Shown piece after piece: positions 7,713 to 23,775 of a DNA stretch of 64,000 nt. The notes below the pieces were generated by a model, which had not been told where the DNA came from, did not search any database, and saw only the letters and a program-made list of their open reading frames with translations. The position numbers and the translations under genes are program-made. Every line of letters begins with the position of its first letter. The stretch's first letter is position 1. This DNA is from an uncultured Actinomycetota bacterium (GTDB lineage: Bacteria; Actinomycetota; Actinomycetes; JAFAQI01), in NCBI GenBank assembly GCA_963770565.1, contig CAVYQE010000001.1:704146-768145 (forward strand), written 5' to 3'.

Positions 7713-8156
7713 GTGCGTACGTTTCAACCCAAGGCCGGCCAGATCACCCGCCAGTGGCTGGTGATCGACGCGACCGACGTCGTGCTCGGCCGGCTCGCCA
7801 GCCAGGCCGCCCGCCTGCTGCGCGGCAAGCACAAGCCGATCTTCGCCCCGCACGTCGACACCGGTGACTTCGTGATCATCGTCAACGCCGCCAAGGTCGC
7901 GCTCACCGGCAACAAGCGCGAGCAGAAGATCGCCTACCGCCACTCCGGCTATCCCGGCGGCCTGAGCGAGACGCCGTACTCCACGTTGCTCGACGAGCGT
8001 CCCGAGCACGTCGTCGAGAAGGCCGTGCGGGGCATGCTGCCGCACACGACGCTCGGCCGTCAGATGGCCGGCAAGCTCAAGGTGTACGCCGGCCCCGAAC
8101 ACCCGCACGAGGCCCAGCGGCCGGTGCCCTACGAGATTTCACAGGTGGCGCAGTAG
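7713..8156 (+). CDS. rplM: 50S ribosomal protein L13
   Basis: [53 protein letters not shown] is the canonical L13 N-terminus. GTG start. Confidence 0.9.
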
Positions 8157-8689
8157 TGAGCGAGACAGTGTCCGAAACCGTCCTCGACCCTGATCTGGCG
8201 GACGAGGAGTTCGCCGACCTCGAAGACGCGGAGGGCGCGAGCGACGAGGCCGACGAGCCGGCGCCCGCTCCCGCGCCCGTGCGCACGCCGCGACCGATCG
8301 CCGGCGGCCCGGTGGCCGCGACCGGTCGCCGCAAGGAGGCCATCGCTCGAGTCCGGCTGATCGCCGGCACCGGCGTCTGGACCATCAACGGACGCACCCT
8401 CGAGGAGTACTTCCCGAACAAGGTCCACCAGCAGATCGTCAACGACCCGTTCGTCACCCTCGACCTCGTCGACCGCTACGACGTGCTCGTCCGGGTCCAG
8501 GGCGGCGGCATCTCGGGCCAGGCCGGGGCAGTCCGCCTCGGCATCGCCCGCTCGCTCTTGCTCACCGACGACGAGGCCCGCCCGCCGTTGAAGAAGGCCG
8601 GCTTCCTCACCCGCGACCCGCGGGCCAAGGAGCGCAAGAAGTACGGACTCAAGAAGGCCCGCAAGGCCCCCCAGTACAGCAAGCGCTGA
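8156..8689 (+). CDS. rpsI: 30S ribosomal protein S9 (with acidic N-terminal extension)
   Basis: C-terminal GGG.SGQAGA.R.GIARAL and the ...[16 protein letters not shown] terminus are diagnostic of S9. The start overlaps the rplM stop by 1 nt. Confidence 0.9.
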
Positions 8690-8694
8690 CGCGA

Positions 8695-9295
8695 ACGCTG
8701 GCGGCGTTCTCGCGCGCTTGCGTGCCTTAAGCCCGCGGCGCTCCCTGCGGCCTTGCCATCCTTCGCCTCAGCGCTTGCTGGCCTCGAAGCGCTGAGGGCG
8801 CGACTGGCTGCGTTCTCGCGCGCTTGCGTGCCTTAAGCACGCGGCGCTTGCTGCGGCCTTGCCATTCGCGCCCTCAGCACTTCGAGTTCGGCCAACGCGA
8901 CTGGCTGCGTTCTCGCTCGCTTGCGGGCTTCAGCACGCGGCGCTTGCTGCGGCCTTGCCATTCGCGCCCTCAGCACATCGAGTGTGGTCAGACGCGACTG
9001 GCTGCGTTCTCGCTCGCTTGCGGGCTTCAGCACGCGGCGCTTGCTGCGGCCTTGCCATTCGCGCCCTCAGCACTTCGAGTTCGGCCAACGCGACTGGCTG
9101 CGTTCTCGCTCGCTTGCGGGCTTAAGCACGCGGCGCTTGCTGCGGCCTTGCCATTCGCGCCCTCAGCACATCGAGTGTGGTCAGACGCGACTGGGCGTTC
9201 TCGCTCTTGCGGCCTTGCCCCTCGCGTCCTCAGCACTTTCGAGTTCGCCGGCGGGTGCGGTTCGACCTGGGCGGGACCGATCAGCGAGAGTTGAC
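8695..9295. repeat. Intergenic tandem repeat array, ~97-bp unit x ~6 (first and last copies degenerate)
   Basis: The motif GACTGG(C/G)TGCGTTCTCGC recurs at 8802, 8899, 8996, 9092 and 9188, giving periods of 97/97/96/96. Units are >90% identical. The period is not a multiple of 3, so the overlapping ORFs (8824..9294 and others) change frame each unit and are non-coding artefacts. Confidence 0.85.
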
Positions 9296-9297
9296 CG

Positions 9298-10632
9298 GTG
9301 ACCACACTGTTCGGCACCGACGGGATCCGTGGTGTCGCGGGCGTCGATCTGACCGCCGACCTTGCGACCTCGGTTGCCGCAGTGGCGGTCGAGGAGCTCG
9401 CTGCCGGACAGGATCGGCCGCTTGTCGTCGTCGGCCGGGATCCGCGCTCGTCCGGCGGATGGCTGCAGGACGCGGTGATCGAGGGCGTGACCGGCGCCGG
9501 CGCCGACGTTGCCTTGCTCGGGGTCATCCCCACGCCGGCCGTGGCGCGCGCGGTCGCCGACGGAGTGCCCGGCATCGACCAGTTGCCCGCCTTCGGCGTC
9601 GTGGTGTCGGCCAGTCACAATCCGGCACCTGACAACGGCATCAAGCTCTTCGGTGCGGGCGGGATGAAGCTCGACGACGACGGCGAGGCAGCGATCGAGG
9701 CCGGCGTCGACCGGCACGCGCCACCGAAGCACGCGGACCGTCGCGGCACGGTGCGCGCCGACCTCAGCCGCGATCATGCGTGGTACGTCGACGCCGTGCT
9801 GTCGACTGCTCCGCAACGCCTCGACGGGCTCCGGGTGGTCGTCGACTGCGCAAACGGGGCTGCCGCGACGGTCGCCCCATTGGTCTATGCGCAGGCCGGC
9901 GCCGACGTCATCGCGATCAACACCGATCTCTCCGGCGAACACATCAACGACAACTGCGGGGCGATGCACCTGAAGTCGCTGCGCGCCGCGATCGAGGAGA
10001 ACCACGCCGACGTTGGCATCGCCCATGACGGCGACGCCGATCGCTGCCTTGCAATGACGGCGAGCGGCGACGTCGTCGACGGGGACGCGATCGTCGCGGT
10101 CTTGGCGCTCGACCTGCAACGGCGCGGCGTGCTGCGCGGCGACGCAGTCGTGGTCACCGTCATGAGCAACCTCGGTCTGACTAAGGCACTTCGGAGTCAT
10201 GGCATCGGTGTCGTCGTCACTCCGGTCGGTGACCGGCACGTCGCGGAGCGAATGCGCGTCGACGACCTGGTGCTCGGCGGCGAGCAGTCGGGTCACATCG
10301 TGCTGCTCGACTATGCGAGCACTGGGGACGGTGTGCTGACCGCACTGCACCTGCTGTGTGCGGTCGCCGCGTCCGGACGGTCTCTCGCCGATCTGGCGGG
10401 CGTCGTCGAACGATTGCCACAGGTCCTCGTCAACGTCACCGTGTCCGACCGCAACACCGCGCTGGCCGCGGCGGCACTCGCGGTCGCCGACGCCGAGGCC
10501 GAGCTCGGCGAGGACGGCCGGATCCTGGTCCGCGCCAGCGGCACCGAGCCGGTGGTCCGGATCATGGTCGAGGCCCCGACCGAGACGGTGGCGAGCGACC
10601 TCGCCGCGCGGATCGCCGCAGTCGTGAGCTGA
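9298..10632 (+). CDS. glmM: phosphoglucosamine mutase
   Basis: LFGTDGIRG start and the active-site phosphoserine loop SASHNP are present. A GAGAG RBS lies 8 nt upstream of the GTG. Conserved rpsI-glmM-glmS order. Confidence 0.9.
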   Translation: MTTLFGTDGIRGVAGVDLTADLATSVAAVAVEELAAGQDRPLVVVGRDPRSSGGWLQDAVIEGVTGAGADVALLGVIPTPAVARAVADGVPGIDQLPAFGVVVSASHNPAPDNGIKLFGAGGMKLDDDGEAAIEAGVDRHAPPKHADRRGTVRADLSRDHAWYVDAVLSTAPQRLDGLRVVVDCANGAAATVAPLVYAQAGADVIAINTDLSGEHINDNCGAMHLKSLRAAIEENHADVGIAHDGDADRCLAMTASGDVVDGDAIVAVLALDLQRRGVLRGDAVVVTVMSNLGLTKALRSHGIGVVVTPVGDRHVAERMRVDDLVLGGEQSGHIVLLDYASTGDGVLTALHLLCAVAASGRSLADLAGVVERLPQVLVNVTVSDRNTALAAAALAVADAEAELGEDGRILVRASGTEPVVRIMVEAPTETVASDLAARIAAVVS

Positions 10633-10667
10633 CCGGGCCCAGGACCGGCGCAGCGTACGCTCATCGC

Positions 10668-12506
10668 ATGTGCGGGATCGTTGGCTATATCGGGACGAAA
10701 CCGGCACTCGACGTCATCATCGGCGGCCTGAGGCGACTCGAATACCGCGGCTACGACTCGGCCGGGATCGCGATCAACGACGGCGCCGGCCACCTCACCG
10801 TGGTGCGCCGGGCCGGCAAGTTGGCCAACCTCCAGCACGCCCTCGACGCCGAGGACCCGCAGTCGTTGCGCGGCAGTCTCGGGATCGGCCACACCCGGTG
10901 GGCCACCCACGGCGCACCCAACGATCGCAACGCCCACCCGCAGACCGACTGCAGTGGCGCGATCGCTGTGGTTCACAACGGCACGCTGGAGAACTTCACC
11001 GAACTGCGTGAGGGCCTCGAGCATCGCGGCCACGTGCTGACCAGCGACACCGACACCGAAGCGGTTGCCCACCTCCTCGAGGAGCGGTACGACGGCGACC
11101 TTGCGGCCGCGGTGCGCAGCGTCGCGGCCGACCTCGACGGCTCCTTCGTCCTGGTCGTCGTCCATCGCGACGAGCCGGAGCTCGTGGTCGGGGCGCGACG
11201 CAATCTGCCGTTGGTGGTCGGCCGGGGCGACGGCGAGAACTTCCTGGCCAGCGACGTCACCGCGTTCATCGCGCACACCCGCGACGCGCGCGCGATCGAC
11301 CAGGACCAGGTGGTCGAGCTGCGCCGCGACGGCGTTGTGGTCACGGACCTCGGCGGCGCTGCTGTCGACGGCGAGGAGTTTCACGTCGACTGGGACGTCG
11401 CCGCCGCTGAGAAGGCCGGCTACGACTACTTCATGCTCAAGGAGATCGACGAGCAACCCGAGGCGGTGCGCGAGACGCTCGGCGGCCGGCTGGACCCGAA
11501 CGGCCGGCTGATCCTCGACGAGCTCGCGATGAGCGACGAAGACATCCAGGGACTCAACCAGGTGATCGTGGTCGGTGCCGGGTCGGCGTACCACTCGGGT
11601 CTGGTCGCGAAGTATGCGATCGAGCGGTGGGCGCGGCTGCCGGTGCACGTCGAGATCTCGAGCGAGTTCCGCTATCGCGACCCCGTGCTCGACCGACACA
11701 CCCTGGTGGTGGCGATCAGTCAGAGCGGCGAAACAGCGGACACACTCGAAGCGGTGCGTCACGCCCGCCGGCAGCGGGCCTGGGTGCTCGCGGTGACCAA
11801 CACAGTCGGGTCGTCGATCGCCCGCGATAGCGACGCCGCGTTCTACACCCGAGGCGGTCCCGAGGTTGCGGTCGCGTCGACCAAGGCGGTCATGACGCAA
11901 CTGGCTGCCGTCTACCTCGTCGGTCTCTACCTTGCGCAGGTTCGCGGCTTCCGCGACACCGACGAGATCCGCTCGCACTTCCGCGACCTGGAGCAGATGC
12001 CTGCGCTGATCAGCGCAGTGCTCGCGCGGATGGATCCGGTCCGCAAGCTGGCGCGCGAGATCGCGTCCTCTGAACGGGTGTTGTTCATCGGCCGGCACGT
12101 CGGCTATCCGATGGCGCTCGAGGGCGCGTTGAAGCTCAAGGAGCTTGCGTACGTGTCCGCCGAAGGTTTCCCGGCCGGGGAGATCAAGCACGGTCCGATC
12201 GCGTTGATCGAGCGCGGGACGCCGGTCGTCGTGATCGCACCACGCCATGCGCTGACCCCGAAGCTGGTGACCAACGTGCAGGAGATCCGCGCCCGCGGGG
12301 CGCGCACGATCGTCATCGCGACCGACGGCGACGACAGCATGGTCAAGCATGCCGACGACCTAATCGTCATCCCGGACACCAAGTCGTTGCTGTCGCCGAT
12401 GTTGATGCTGGTGCCGATGCAGGTGTTGGCGGCGGAGTTTGCGATGTCGCGCGGCCTCGATGTCGATCAGCCGCGCAATCTCGCGAAGAGCGTCACCGTC
12501 GAGTGA
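10668..12506 (+). CDS. glmS: glutamine--fructose-6-phosphate aminotransferase (isomerising)
   Basis: MCGIVGYIG has the N-terminal catalytic Cys2 of class-II amidotransferases. Two SIS domains follow. The six-frame ORF 10356.. is an in-frame upstream extension (Arg-rich) and is rejected. Confidence 0.9.
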
Positions 12507-18344: not shown

Positions 18345-19632
18345 CCCGCTGGCGCGCGACTCGCGCCAGGTCGGGAAGGGTGTCGATCAGCGCCTGGGCC
18401 TGATCCTGGTCCCGGTAACGCGCGGTCGCGGTGAAGCGGTGGCCCGCGGTGTCGAGGAAGACGTTCGCGAGCCGGAGCCGGCGTACCCAAGGTCCTTGCG
18501 ACCACCGGATGCTCTGCACCTTCTCCAGCGGGACGATGACGGTGTCGGGCCGGAAGCGGCCGGTGCAGCAGGAGACATAGCGCTCGTCGTGGTGGATCCG
18601 GGCGTAGCGGCGGGCGAGCGGCGCCCGCCAGAACGATCGCGCCGGTGTGCCGGCCGGTGCTGGTAGCTCGGCGATCGCGCCGGGCAGCACCCGGCTCAGC
18701 AGCCACCGCGCCTCCTCGCGCGAGCCGAGCGGGAGCAAGGCCCGTGAGGTCATCCCGGACTGCCGGTCGCCGCGTTCGGCATTGCGGCGGCGAGCCACGT
18801 CGAACTCCAGCCGCACCCAGCCGAACGCCCGCCACGGCAGCGGCTCCACCCAGCGGACGGCCTGCACCCGGCCGTGCGGGATCGTCTCGGCCCGGGTCTG
18901 CAGAAGCCCGCTGCGCAACCGGATGCCGTCGGGTGCCTCCGCGATGTGGAACTCCCATTCGGCGGCGATCTGCCGCCAGGTGACGAGCAGGTCGCCGAAC
19001 ACGATCGGCACCGCCCCGGCGAGGATCCCGCCGGCGGCGTGCGGGAACGACACCGCCGCGACGATGACCCCGACGACCAGCAGTACGCCGAAGGCAAAGC
19101 GCAGGCTCAGCAGATTGGCGATCAGGATCTGGCTGCCGCGGACGGCGAGGATCTGCCGCTCCGGCGGCTCCGGGGTGTCGTCGGCGAGGCCGTGCGCCAA
19201 GGCGAGAAGCTGGGCCCGGACCGCGATCGCGCGCTCCTCGTTGAGGTAGGCGAGCCGGGCCCGGCCGGTGTCGTGCCCGGCGAGGACGAGCCGGAGCTCA
19301 GTGACGCCGAGGATTCGCGCGAGCAGCGGACGAACCAGGTCGATCCCCTGGATCCGGGTGACCGGCACCCGGACCTGCTGCCGCCGGATCAGGCCGGTGT
19401 CGATCTGCAGCTCGCCGCGGTGCACCCGCCATCTGGTCACCCGCCAGTACACGACCCCGGCGCCCGCCGCGAGCACGACCGCGACGAGATCGAAGACCGA
19501 CGGTCGGTGCTCGGCCGCGCCGTTCGCCGCGACGATGGTGAACAGCCCCGCCGCGGCTCCGCCGGCCCGCACGATGGGCGACAGCGGATGTAACCGCGAC
19601 CATGCTTCCGGAAGCGGGGCGTCCTCGCTCAC
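18331..19632 (-). CDS. membrane-anchored bacterial PH-domain protein (YdbT-like, bPH_2 repeats)
   Basis: N-terminal TM hairpin, then repeated bPH_2 modules (…VTRIQGIDLVRPLLARILGVTELRLV…). Paired with an upstream YdbS-like gene, the classical ydbS/ydbT arrangement. Confidence 0.7.
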   Translation of the reverse strand: MSEDAPLPEAWSRLHPLSPIVRAGGAAAGLFTIVAANGAAEHRPSVFDLVAVVLAAGAGVVYWRVTRWRVHRGELQIDTGLIRRQQVRVPVTRIQGIDLVRPLLARILGVTELRLVLAGHDTGRARLAYLNEERAIAVRAQLLALAHGLADDTPEPPERQILAVRGSQILIANLLSLRFAFGVLLVVGVIVAAVSFPHAAGGILAGAVPIVFGDLLVTWRQIAAEWEFHIAEAPDGIRLRSGLLQTRAETIPHGRVQAVRWVEPLPWRAFGWVRLEFDVARRRNAERGDRQSGMTSRALLPLGSREEARWLLSRVLPGAIAELPAPAGTPARSFWRAPLARRYARIHHDERYVSCCTGRFRPDTVIVPLEKVQSIRWSQGPWVRRLRLANVFLDTAGHRFTATARYRDQDQAQALIDTLPDLARVARQRVTAG

Positions 19633-20096
19633 AGCCCGGCGGCCTTGGCCTCGCCGAGGGCAGCGAGCCGATCACGCAGCCGGGCTGCCTCTGCGCTGTC
19701 GAGGCCGGGGATCCGGGCGTCGGTTGCCGACGCAGCGGTGTGCAGCTGCACCGTCGCCAGCCCGAACACCCGGTCGACCGGGCCGGCGGTGACGTCGACG
19801 AACTGCATCCGGCCGTACGGGACGACCGTCAGCCGGCGGATCATCACGCCACGACGCACGAGAAGGTCGTCGGCTCGTTCGGCGTACCCCCAGGCGCGAT
19901 AGCGCCGCCAGCTCAGTAGCGCGAAACCGGCCGAGCCAGCCAGCACGGCCGCTGCCGCGATCAGTCCGGCGGCCGCTCCGAACGGGATCCCGATCGCCAG
20001 GCCGAGCCCGATCAGCAGCAGCCCGCCGACCAGGCCGACCTGCGCCTGCCGAGCCCGCCACATCCGTGGCGAGGGGGACAGCCAGATCGGATCCAC
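19629..20096 (-). CDS. membrane-anchored bacterial PH-domain protein (YdbS-like, bPH_2)
   Basis: Two TM helices followed by a single bPH_2 domain (RLTVVPYGRMQFVDVTAGPVDRVFGLATVQLHTAS). Its stop overlaps the start of the downstream ydbT-like gene. Confidence 0.65.
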   Translation of the reverse strand: MDPIWLSPSPRMWRARQAQVGLVGGLLLIGLGLAIGIPFGAAAGLIAAAAVLAGSAGFALLSWRRYRAWGYAERADDLLVRRGVMIRRLTVVPYGRMQFVDVTAGPVDRVFGLATVQLHTAASATDARIPGLDSAEAARLRDRLAALGEAKAAGL

Positions 20097-20113: not shown

Positions 20114-20285
20114 CAGCGCTAGCGCCCCATCAACCAACGTCTGGCCTGTTGCGCGACGTCCAGGTGGCGACCGGCGGCGTTCTCGTCGGCCCCGATGGCG
20201 CTGCCATCGCGACCTTCTCGGCCTTGCCGCTCATCCACCTGGACGCTGCTCACGACGGCCAACGTTGATTGATGGGGCGCTAGCG
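20114..20285. repeat. ~170-bp element bounded by 25-bp terminal inverted repeats (CGCTAGCGCCCCATCAA(C/T)CAACGT), with nested internal palindromes
   Basis: The left arm at ~20114-20140 and the right arm at ~20258-20285 are reverse complements (24/25 match). Internal inverted pairs are GACGTCCAGGTGG/CCACCTGGACGC, plus a central palindrome GATGGCGCTGCCATC. It lies in the divergent ydbS/tsaB intergenic region. Confidence 0.6.
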
Positions 20286-20292
20286 TCGATGG

Positions 20293-20964
20293 ATGCTCGT
20301 GCTCGCCTTCGACACGTCGACGCCGGCCGTCACGGTCGCGGTGGCCTCGGTCGATCCGGCGTCGGGCGGTGTCTCGACGCTTGCGGCCGCGGTCGAGATC
20401 GCGGCGAACCACCACGGCGAGCTGCTCGCGCCCTTGATCGAGACCGTGCTCGCGGCGGCCGGGGTGGTCGGGTCCGACCTCGACGCGGTCGGGGTCGGGC
20501 TCGGCCCCGGCCCGTTCACCGGGCTGCGGGTCGGCATCGTGACCGCGCGCGCAATGTCCGACGCGCTCGGTGTTCCGGCGTACGGCGAGTCGTCGCTGCG
20601 CCTGTTCGCGCGGGGCCGAGCCGGTGTTGCGACCGACGCGCGCCGAAAGCAGGTGTATTGGGCGATCACCAGTGCGGCCGGATTCGAGGCGGGTCCGGAC
20701 CTCGCGACGCCGGCCGAGGCGGCGGCGCGCTTTGCCGGGGCCGGGATCCGCGCGGTGGCCGGCGCGGGTCCCTTGCTGTACCCCGACGCCTTTGCCGGGC
20801 TCATCGCGGCGCCGGACGCGACCTATCCGCGGGCCACGTTGCTGATCGAGCGGATCGCCGATCGGGTCCGCACCAAGGCGCCGGCCGATCCGCTCGCGCC
20901 GATGTACCTGCGGCGCCCCGACGCGCAGCCGCCGGGCCGGCCGAAGCAGGTGACGCCGGCATGA
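20293..20964 (+). CDS. tsaB: tRNA threonylcarbamoyladenosine biosynthesis protein TsaB (inactive Kae1 paralog)
   Basis: [17 protein letters not shown]...[12 protein letters not shown] matches the YeaZ/TsaB N-terminal ASKHA fold motifs. Confidence 0.85.
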
Positions 20965-23690: not shown

Positions 23691-23775
23691 CGCATGGCCC
23701 ATGCGTGGGCCAATAGCCCCACCAATGGGCCATGCGTGGGCCGATAGCCCCACCAATGGGCCATGCGTGTGGGTC
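23691..23775. repeat. 31-bp direct repeat x ~2.7, each with a short GC hairpin (GGCCCATGCGTGGGCC), upstream of the groES promoter
   Basis: TGG(G)CCATGCGTGGGCC(A/G)ATAGCCCCACCAA is repeated at ~23695, ~23726 and ~23757 (the last partial). Each copy contains the inverted repeat GGCCCA-tgcg-TGGGCC. Confidence 0.7.

Follow-up and report, generated by a model that had tools for sequence, protein, structure and literature searches.

A tandem array between rpsI and glmM that probably arose by local amplification of a dispersed bulged-hairpin element

Introduction

The 64,000-nt window analysed here, by which we mean the whole stretch of DNA to which all coordinates below refer, comes from a high-GC actinobacterium and contains the genes rplM, rpsI, glmM and glmS in this order on one strand. 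Two members of this core operon, rpsI and glmM, are separated by 608 bp that at first sight appear empty. What fills this spacer, how the filling came about, whether it is peculiar to this locus, and what it might do in a transcript shared by ribosomal-protein and glm genes are the questions that this locus raises. The original prediction, made from the sequence alone, saw in the spacer a MIRU/VNTR-like array of six tandem units. Here we describe the array copy by copy, compare the orthologous junction in relatives, and trace the unit to a family of hairpins that is found at many other genes.

Results

The rpsI-glmM spacer contains six tandem units

The spacer was found to consist of six head-to-tail units of 96-97 bp (c0 to c5; Table 1) with an additional higher-order period of 193 bp, in agreement with the predicted filling of the 608 bp by about six units of some 97 bp. 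Tandem Repeats Finder called positions 8799-9206 with a period of 96 (4.2 copies, 93% matches, score 695) and, in a second call, a 193-bp period spanning 8698-9206. Pattern searches located the unit start GCGACTGG at 8800, 8897, 8994, 9090 and 9187, and the unit 3' motif at 8852, 8948, 9045, 9141 and 9208; exact and near-exact motif searches found five to six copies of the unit, all at this site, against zero expected from shuffled sequences. The tails of the units alternate between two variants, ..CACTTCGAGTTCGGCCAAC and ..CACATCGAGTGTGGTCAGAC, and positions 8832-9001 are 99% identical to 9025-9194 (direct repeat D1), which gives rise to the 193-bp unit. As had also been proposed, the array is non-coding, because its period (96/97, 193) is not a multiple of three and the ORFs crossing it, which were checked for a conserved protein, matched no Pfam family.

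The assignment of the flanking genes was supported by their relatives. GlmM matched proteins named phosphoglucosamine mutase at 100% and 94% identity, S9 at the orthologous loci is 88-98% identical, and PF00380 was called 5' of glmM in relatives. Exact-protein look-ups with the RpsI and GlmM of the window returned no record, and a homology search retrieved a 1.4-kb contig whose GlmM is 100% identical. An unrelated tandem repeat lies elsewhere in the window, at 23694-23769 (period 31, 2.5 copies, 95% matches; ATGGGCCATGCGTGGGCCAATAGCCCCACCA).

Table 1. Positions of the genes, array copies and hairpins in the window
Feature	Position	Strand	Description
rplM	7713-8156	+	Upstream of rpsI in the same-strand gene order rplM-rpsI-glmM-glmS
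rpsI (ribosomal protein S9)	8156-8689	+	From the ORF list; last codons and TGA (..AAG CGC TGA) are the 5' outer arm of c0
c0	8677-8782	+	Intact, diverged hairpin; arms 8677-8702 and 8755-8780; sits on the rpsI stop codon
rpsI-glmM spacer	8690-9297		608 bp; rpsI ends at 8689, GTG start of glmM at 9298
9-bp-stem hairpin	8766-8797	+	CCTCAGCGC (8766-8774) pairs with GCGCTGAGG (8789-8797); no U-tract after it
c1	8783-8886	+	Best-preserved complete element: left arm, bulged core, central hairpin, right arm
c2	8897-8993	+	Putative truncated duplicate: inner element and 3' flank
c3	8994-9089	+	Putative truncated duplicate: inner element and 3' flank
c4	9090-9186	+	Putative truncated duplicate: inner element and 3' flank
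c5	9187 to about 9250	+	Internal deletion between two short CTTGCGG-like direct repeats
Unique glmM leader	9246-9297	+	Shine-Dalgarno-like GAGAG; conserved with L034, identical to the start of contig L188
glmM (phosphoglucosamine mutase)	9298-10632	+	From the ORF list; followed by glmS
Second, diverged superfamily member	20116-20286	+	About 170 nt; 5' core GGCGGCGTTCTCG, variant 3' core TCTCGGCCTTGCC

Only the first two copies retain the complete hairpin

The first and the last copy had been singled out as the only degenerate ones. This holds for their sequence, but structurally the situation is the reverse, as c0 and c1 are the sole intact elements. The minimum free energy of c1 was -70.0 kcal/mol (z = -9.1); this copy contains an inverted repeat of 38 nt (I1) and, with 114.1 bits, was the top match among all loci to the covariance model R1 described below. 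The diverged c0, which is 82% identical to c1, reached -59.1 kcal/mol (z = -4.4 against shuffles) and 90.3 bits, and its inverted repeat (I3) is 26 nt long and 88% complementary. The string AAGCGCTGA, comprising the last two rpsI codons and the stop, occurs at 8681 and is found again at 8787 (repeat family D3). A 9-bp-stem hairpin previously assigned to the first copy does exist, but it joins two copies, being formed by the right arm of c0 and the left arm of c1. Similarly, the expectation of a highly structured array transcript was borne out for the first ~210 nt (c0 and c1) but not for c2-c4, which lack the left outer arm, carry a G.A mismatch in the central stem and end alternately in the two tail variants. 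Folding of c2-c5 was no better than that of shuffled sequence (z from -1.2 to +0.6, and from -1.1 to +0.6 for c2-c4).

The edges of the copies suggest an order of events. Anchored on the rpsI stop codon, c0 is the ancestral copy; c5 would be the ancestral 3'-most copy, given that its tail runs into the same 3' flank as that of the single copy in the relative L034 (alignment A4), and c2-c4 appear to be recent truncated duplicates. The tails of c1-c4 match the L034 3' flank only as far as ..CAACG and resume at CGACTGG, a string that comes after ..GAACG in L034. This switch suggests that the recent 96-nt unit arose between two AACG microhomologies, and per-unit folding supports that it comprises the inner element and the 3' flank without the left arm. 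The array could thus have been built in four steps: a single complete element between rpsI and glmM would represent the ancestral state, its full duplication in the lineage of the window would have produced c0 and c1, the 96-nt segment would have been duplicated by recombination or slippage between the AACG microhomologies, and unequal exchange would have duplicated the 193-bp double unit.

Copy number differs at the orthologous junction of relatives

The relatives compared at this junction, ranked by the identity of their GlmM to that of the window, are different species or lineages and not strains, the nearest being Frankiaceae and Mycobacteriales MAGs. One element was present in a 146-nt spacer in L034/L092 (GlmM 94%), and one each in L088, L023 and L197 (73%, 64% and 59%); the outer arm of L197 has a different sequence that is still complementary, and the stop codon is TAA. 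Three copies with a period of about 102 were found in L026 (66%), and the contig of L190 (75%) begins within an array of at least 2.2 copies with a period of 102, like c0 of the window. Only the 5' half of the element persists in L196 (67%). No recognisable element was detected in the 107-nt spacer of L189 (74%), and none in L191-193 (71%) or L194/195 (67%; the latter Frankiaceae, GCA_019239875.1), where the spacer measures 0-2 nt. Hence the variability of copy number that had been predicted was encountered, here among lineages and not strains, the junction holding no copy, a decayed remnant, one, three, at least two or, in the window, six copies.

It follows that the element at the rpsI-glmM junction is old or recurrent and decaying in some lineages, and that it has been amplified independently at least three times. 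The close relatives with a spacer of 0-2 nt indicate that the element is dispensable. In L190, a 193-aa ORF with no Pfam match lies between the array and glmM, in the region of contig positions 1-916 that includes the array.

A dispersed family of bulged hairpins includes the array unit

Scanning of one genome per species with the pattern TGCGGCCTTGCC-N9-CTCAGC yielded whole-unit homologues in MAGs of Frankiaceae, Mycobacteriales and Micromonosporaceae, with several in each MAG. The array unit is thus a member of a dispersed, structurally conserved family of bulged hairpins, not a minisatellite specific to this locus. The outer arms of the family in actinobacteria read GCTGAG...CTCAGC; they are followed by a second stem, CGCTGGC/GCCAGCG, and then by a nearly invariant core. 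This core is a continuous helix with two conserved bulges, given here in brackets (5' GGC-K-GC[GTTCT]CGC ... GCGGC[CTT]GCC 3'), and the central hairpin covaries (GCGTGC/GCACGC, GTGTGC/GCACAC and GCGGGC/GCCCGC).

Several measures agreed with this structure. With an explicit structure, 81.6% of the alignment cells were paired, versus 26-42% with the partners slid. The covariance model R1, built from the structure alignment, recovered 64 matches; the 61 distinct sequences matched by the model were 83% paired and showed compensatory double changes in 27 of the 34 pairs. Their covariation score was 0.353 against 0.108 in shuffles, in an alignment that is fitted to the model and hence leans toward the structure.

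Besides the form seen in the array, a metagenome scan with two core motifs revealed, among the matches listed, loci of a long form, in which a centre of 52-55 nt is enclosed by lineage-specific complementary arms of 25-45 nt, on contigs of a GC content down to 42%. As these variable arms misalign, per-sequence folds and arm-versus-arm alignments were used for them. The long form occurs in at least one contig of Nitrospirota, whose CarA shares 88% identity with a protein of a Nitrospirae MAG and 82% with the CarA of Ca. Nitronereus thalassa; the element was not found in the 21 kb of Ca. Nitronereus thalassa that were examined. An extra self-complementary module (..GGCGCGTCTCGGCGCGCC..) is inserted in one or both arms of four long-form loci, L094, L115, L117 and L143, and their branched or chimeric hairpins show that the family is modular.

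A second, diverged member of the superfamily is present in the window at 20116-20286. It has long perfect outer arms (CGCTAGCGCCCCATCAA.CAACGT), matched R1 at 20157-20257 (39.4 bits, E = 1.7e-7) and folded to -112 kcal/mol on the plus and -126 kcal/mol on the minus strand. It occupies the intergenic region from which a minus-strand membrane-protein gene (19629-20096) and a TsaB-like gene (20293-20964) diverge, both labels being read from the translations, so that this copy is not at the 3' end of any gene.

The family was not recognised in the collections that we searched. Rfam 15 gave no match at gathering score in the window and, at permissive settings, only chance matches to miRNAs and snoRNAs (E up to 10); on 20 family loci its sole match was an unrelated tRNA, with nothing on the element. 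Neither the short nor the long form matched any PLSDB plasmid by blastn, and a full-text literature search for the core sequence strings led to unrelated primers only. Matches on viral contigs looked like coding sequence or chance, and a partial HMM match in L039 (Comamonadaceae) was treated as chance on account of its apparent coding region.

Family members lie at stop codons, in the sense orientation

Actinobacterial copies adjoin unrelated genes, such as those for an amine oxidase, sigma-70, a PALP/CBS enzyme, Mce, acetyl-CoA synthetase and RidA; further neighbours, read from C-terminal sequences, look like L28, L33, the C-terminus of RpoB, WhiB and AhcY. The position relative to genes was surveyed in 93 instances, among the matches listed, that had enough room on both sides, by recording long ORFs that end no more than 70 nt upstream of the core. 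Such an ORF end was found on the same strand in 60 of the 93 and on the opposite strand in 24, and the count for ORFs of at least 150 aa at loci below 62% GC was 18 versus 2. The distances from stop codon to core cluster at 13-15, 23-27 and 33-41 nt, with actinobacterial copies peaking at 13-15 nt, which places the stop codon at or inside the 5' arm; members of the family usually start on the stop codon of the same-strand upstream gene or within about 40 nt after it. A conserved read-through peptide after the stop was considered and rejected, since these distances fall in all three frames.

No transposase, RAYT, integrase or other family was recurrent among 341 ORFs neighbouring 120 loci (among the matches listed), and aligned flanks of two subfamilies, read by eye, revealed no target-site duplication. 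Tandem doublets or longer runs were common (L008, L026, L041, L050, L077, L083, L085, L090, L157, L162, L177 and L190). The copies in L041 (3337-3474) and L050 (7671-7808) are head-to-tail doublets spaced by 64 nt that overlap rather than abut, the 3' stem GCCAGCG of the first copy running straight into GCGTTCTC of the second.

The two strands are not equivalent

The element points the same way as the upstream gene, yet C.A mismatches, which correspond to G.U on the opposite strand, outnumber G.U in its outer arms three- to fivefold (arm-to-arm alignments, 149 versus 29; model alignment, 68 versus 25); many of these counts are inherited within subfamilies, and four unrelated arm subfamilies, compared by eye, agree in direction. 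Established strand-specific deamination biases predict the opposite of this pattern. The complementary strand also folds more stably in 101 of 122 elements (among the matches listed), by 9 kcal/mol on average. Together, the excess of C.A mismatches and the better fold of the opposite strand speak against the sense mRNA as the main level of selection on the outer stem. In the core and central helices the bias is inverted, with 52 G.U versus 18 A.C.

Discussion

Our preferred explanation is that the array originated by local head-to-tail amplification of a dispersed, REP/MITE-like bulged hairpin that in this actinobacterial clade lies right on the rpsI stop codon, and thus constitutes a REP-like intercistronic element with a VNTR-type expansion; we put its probability at roughly 60%. 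It is based on what was observed of the anatomy of the array, the family membership of its unit, the covariation and the variation in copy number. A role of the element at the RNA level can be inferred by analogy with the REPs of E. coli. The hairpins of c0 and c1, which abut the stop codon, would form an intercistronic structure in the rplM-rpsI-glmM-glmS transcript, between the highly expressed rplM-rpsI and glmM-glmS, and this structure would shield the upstream ribosomal-protein mRNA from 3' exonucleases and/or slow terminating ribosomes, lessening read-through into glmM. The truncated units c2-c5 would add length without structure, and most likely represent neutral VNTR filler.

Several observations count against this explanation: the strand bias of the outer arms and the better fold of the opposite strand, the close relatives that do without the element, and its difference in size from classical REPs. 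The conservation of a 20-nt core across phyla, which implies a specific partner, is a further one. A broader reading, which we put forward only tentatively, is that the unit belongs to an uncatalogued, cross-phylum superfamily of bulged hairpins (5' GGC-K-GC[GUUCU(C)]CGC ... GCGGC[CUU]GCC 3') that are sense-oriented at stop codons and whose outer arms wobble-pair on the opposite strand, a combination that would point to a trans-acting partner and to strand-specific insertion or action. The partner might be a nuclease or recombinase of single-stranded DNA, or else a factor that binds RNA when translation terminates, and tandem amplification would be a recurrent side effect.

The main rival to our preferred explanation regards the family as a selfish or recombination element that acts as single-stranded DNA, like REP/RAYT, the ends of IS200/IS605 or integron attC, with the array as a by-product. 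A conserved nuclease or recombinase would use the invariant bulges to recognise the hairpin that forms on the strand complementary to the upstream gene, and the position at stop codons would reflect target choice and the survival of harmless insertions. On balance we find this unlikely. The wobble asymmetry of the outer arms favours the antisense strand, but the inner helices are biased in the opposite direction, and the antisense strand of co-oriented genes is, by established replication geometry, not normally the one exposed as lagging-strand template or in the transcription bubble. Presence/absence polymorphism at the orthologous site would fit a mobile element, yet one site has been kept across a GlmM divergence of 59-94% identity. 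The dispersal at unrelated genes in two phyla, the modular or branched variants and the invariant unpaired bulges within variable, covarying stems also agree with this rival, but the enzymes that it calls for did not recur among the neighbouring ORFs, and the flanks, inspected by eye, were free of target-site duplications.

It is improbable, in our opinion, that we are dealing with a cis-acting regulatory RNA specific to glmM/glmS, whether riboswitch-like or a translational-coupling switch. In such a switch the right arm, CUCAGC, would have two alternative partners, GCUGAG in the stop-codon arm and a downstream GCUGAGG overlapping the Shine-Dalgarno sequence of glmM. Several lineages have kept the element between rpsI and glmM, but relatives with an identical operon order do without it, and since dispersed copies flank many unrelated genes we reject a glm-specific riboswitch; no riboswitch or ribozyme of Rfam was matched either. 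A second GCTGAG/GCTGAA does follow the right arm CTCAGC just before glmM in L023 (826-840), L026 (4211-4235) and L190 (107-125), and in L023 it overlaps the Shine-Dalgarno-like GAGG of glmM, so one may imagine, if speculatively, an alternative pairing that is linked to the termination of ribosomes at the rpsI stop; in the window, however, the array puts about 400 nt between the intact hairpins and the ribosome-binding site of glmM.

Still less probable is an assembly artefact, affecting either the copy number or the array as a whole. Double units of 193 bp that are nearly identical are hard to assemble, and an independent short-read metagenome contains a contig (L188, from JGI 3300080930; 1448 nt, equal to window 9246-10690, with a 100% identical GlmM) that starts at window 9246, exactly at the end of the array, which its assembler failed to cross. 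This contig end is likely a repeat-induced assembly break, consistent with a real repeat at that place, and so argues against the artefact that it might seem to favour. Furthermore, the units of the window are ordered, distinct variants (c0, c1, alternating tails, a deleted c5) and not collapsed identical copies, and independent arrays occupy the same junction in L026 and L190.

Finally, the suggestion that the first hairpin may terminate rpsI, or that the whole element is an intrinsic (Rho-independent) terminator of the rplM-rpsI operon, has next to no likelihood, for although stable GC-rich hairpins directly follow the stop codon and the TRITs, conserved palindromes over stop codons, provide a mycobacterial precedent (PMC3152330), U-tract and terminator-like sites are both absent from 8500-9500, mycobacterial RNA polymerase needs a U-tract at intrinsic terminators according to the title of PMC3993855, predicted TRITs overlap few mapped 3' ends (bioRxiv 10.1101/2022.06.01.494293), and glmM of L023 begins no more than 10 nt after the element, which leaves no room for a promoter.

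The array as such is ordinary, and the repeat family of its unit is the more notable result. Reading the unit as a dispersed repeat explains a 608-bp spacer within a core operon that would otherwise seem empty. It also predicts a length polymorphism at the strain level between rpsI and glmM, usable for typing, and short-read assemblies are expected to break at the array, as that of L188 did. The family stands out by a core unusually conserved in Actinomycetota and Nitrospirota, its placement at stop codons and its absence from Rfam. If a dedicated partner does exist, the family would be a new class among structured DNA or RNA repeats of the REP/attC/IS200 type. It might likewise help to explain the TRIT-like conserved palindromes at 3' ends in actinobacteria, which to our knowledge have no canonical terminators.

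How, then, does the element relate to known repeats? Integron attC sites were discarded as a counterpart, as the core is internal and, by eye, off the R''/R' box consensus (RYYYAAC ... GTTRRRY), and the copies are solitary and next to housekeeping genes. The element resembles MITEs in its size of 100-170 nt, long complementary arms, multiple copies and lineage-specific arm sequences. However, its arms vary and its interior is conserved, the reverse of an element defined by terminal inverted repeats; no parent insertion sequence is known for it, and target-site duplications were not seen by eye.

The likeness to REPs and BIMEs goes further. REPs lie downstream of ORFs, may supply stop codons, have conserved unpaired nucleotides and are reiterated in tandem with flanking DNA (PMC3733652); those within 15 nt of a stop codon lower the translation of the upstream gene, as cited in PMC12306157. 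Correspondingly, the element described here is a dispersed, extragenic, imperfect palindrome, mostly 3' of ORFs and near the stop codon, which it sometimes supplies; it is often clustered, in tandem with flanking DNA, and has conserved unpaired nucleotides. In contrast to REPs of 20-40 nt, it measures 80-170 nt, three to five times as much, and its conserved nucleotides are those of short helices and of the unpaired internal bulges GTTCT and CTT. No terminal GTAG or CGTC tag was evident on reading the alignments by eye, and GTAG appears in the central hairpin of some long-form copies. A survey of REPs reported GTAG and CGTC repeats in other phyla and made no mention of Actinobacteria (PMC3733652), whereas here the same 20-nt core is common to contigs of Actinomycetota and Nitrospirota, and the ORFs neighbouring the listed loci did not include a RAYT gene.

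The MIRU/VNTR-like architecture of the original prediction was partly upheld. The array shares with MIRUs the tandem arrangement of 40-100-bp units within an operon spacer (here 96-97 bp, rpsI-glmM), the overlap of the unit with the upstream stop codon, the presence of the family at several loci and a copy number that differs between relatives. MIRU units, as Supply and colleagues reportedly described in 1997, carry short in-frame ORFs coupled to the flanking genes. This part of the likeness does not apply, because the alternating 96/97-nt period shifts the frame in each unit and excludes in-frame mini-ORFs. The unit of the window is, moreover, a long covarying hairpin of a dispersed family in a Frankiaceae-like host, the comparison with MIRUs being one by description.

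The closest actinobacterial precedent, again set beside the element by description, is TRIT, the Tuberculosis Rho-independent terminator motif of Gardner et al. (2011), a conserved palindromic motif of which 147 copies are present in M. tuberculosis and which starts about 8 nt before the stop, inside the coding sequence (PMC3152330). Its placement is the same as that of the arm GCGCTGAG, which contains the rpsI stop codon. TRIT was reported as restricted to Mycobacterium (PMC3152330), whereas the family described here reaches other families and another phylum.
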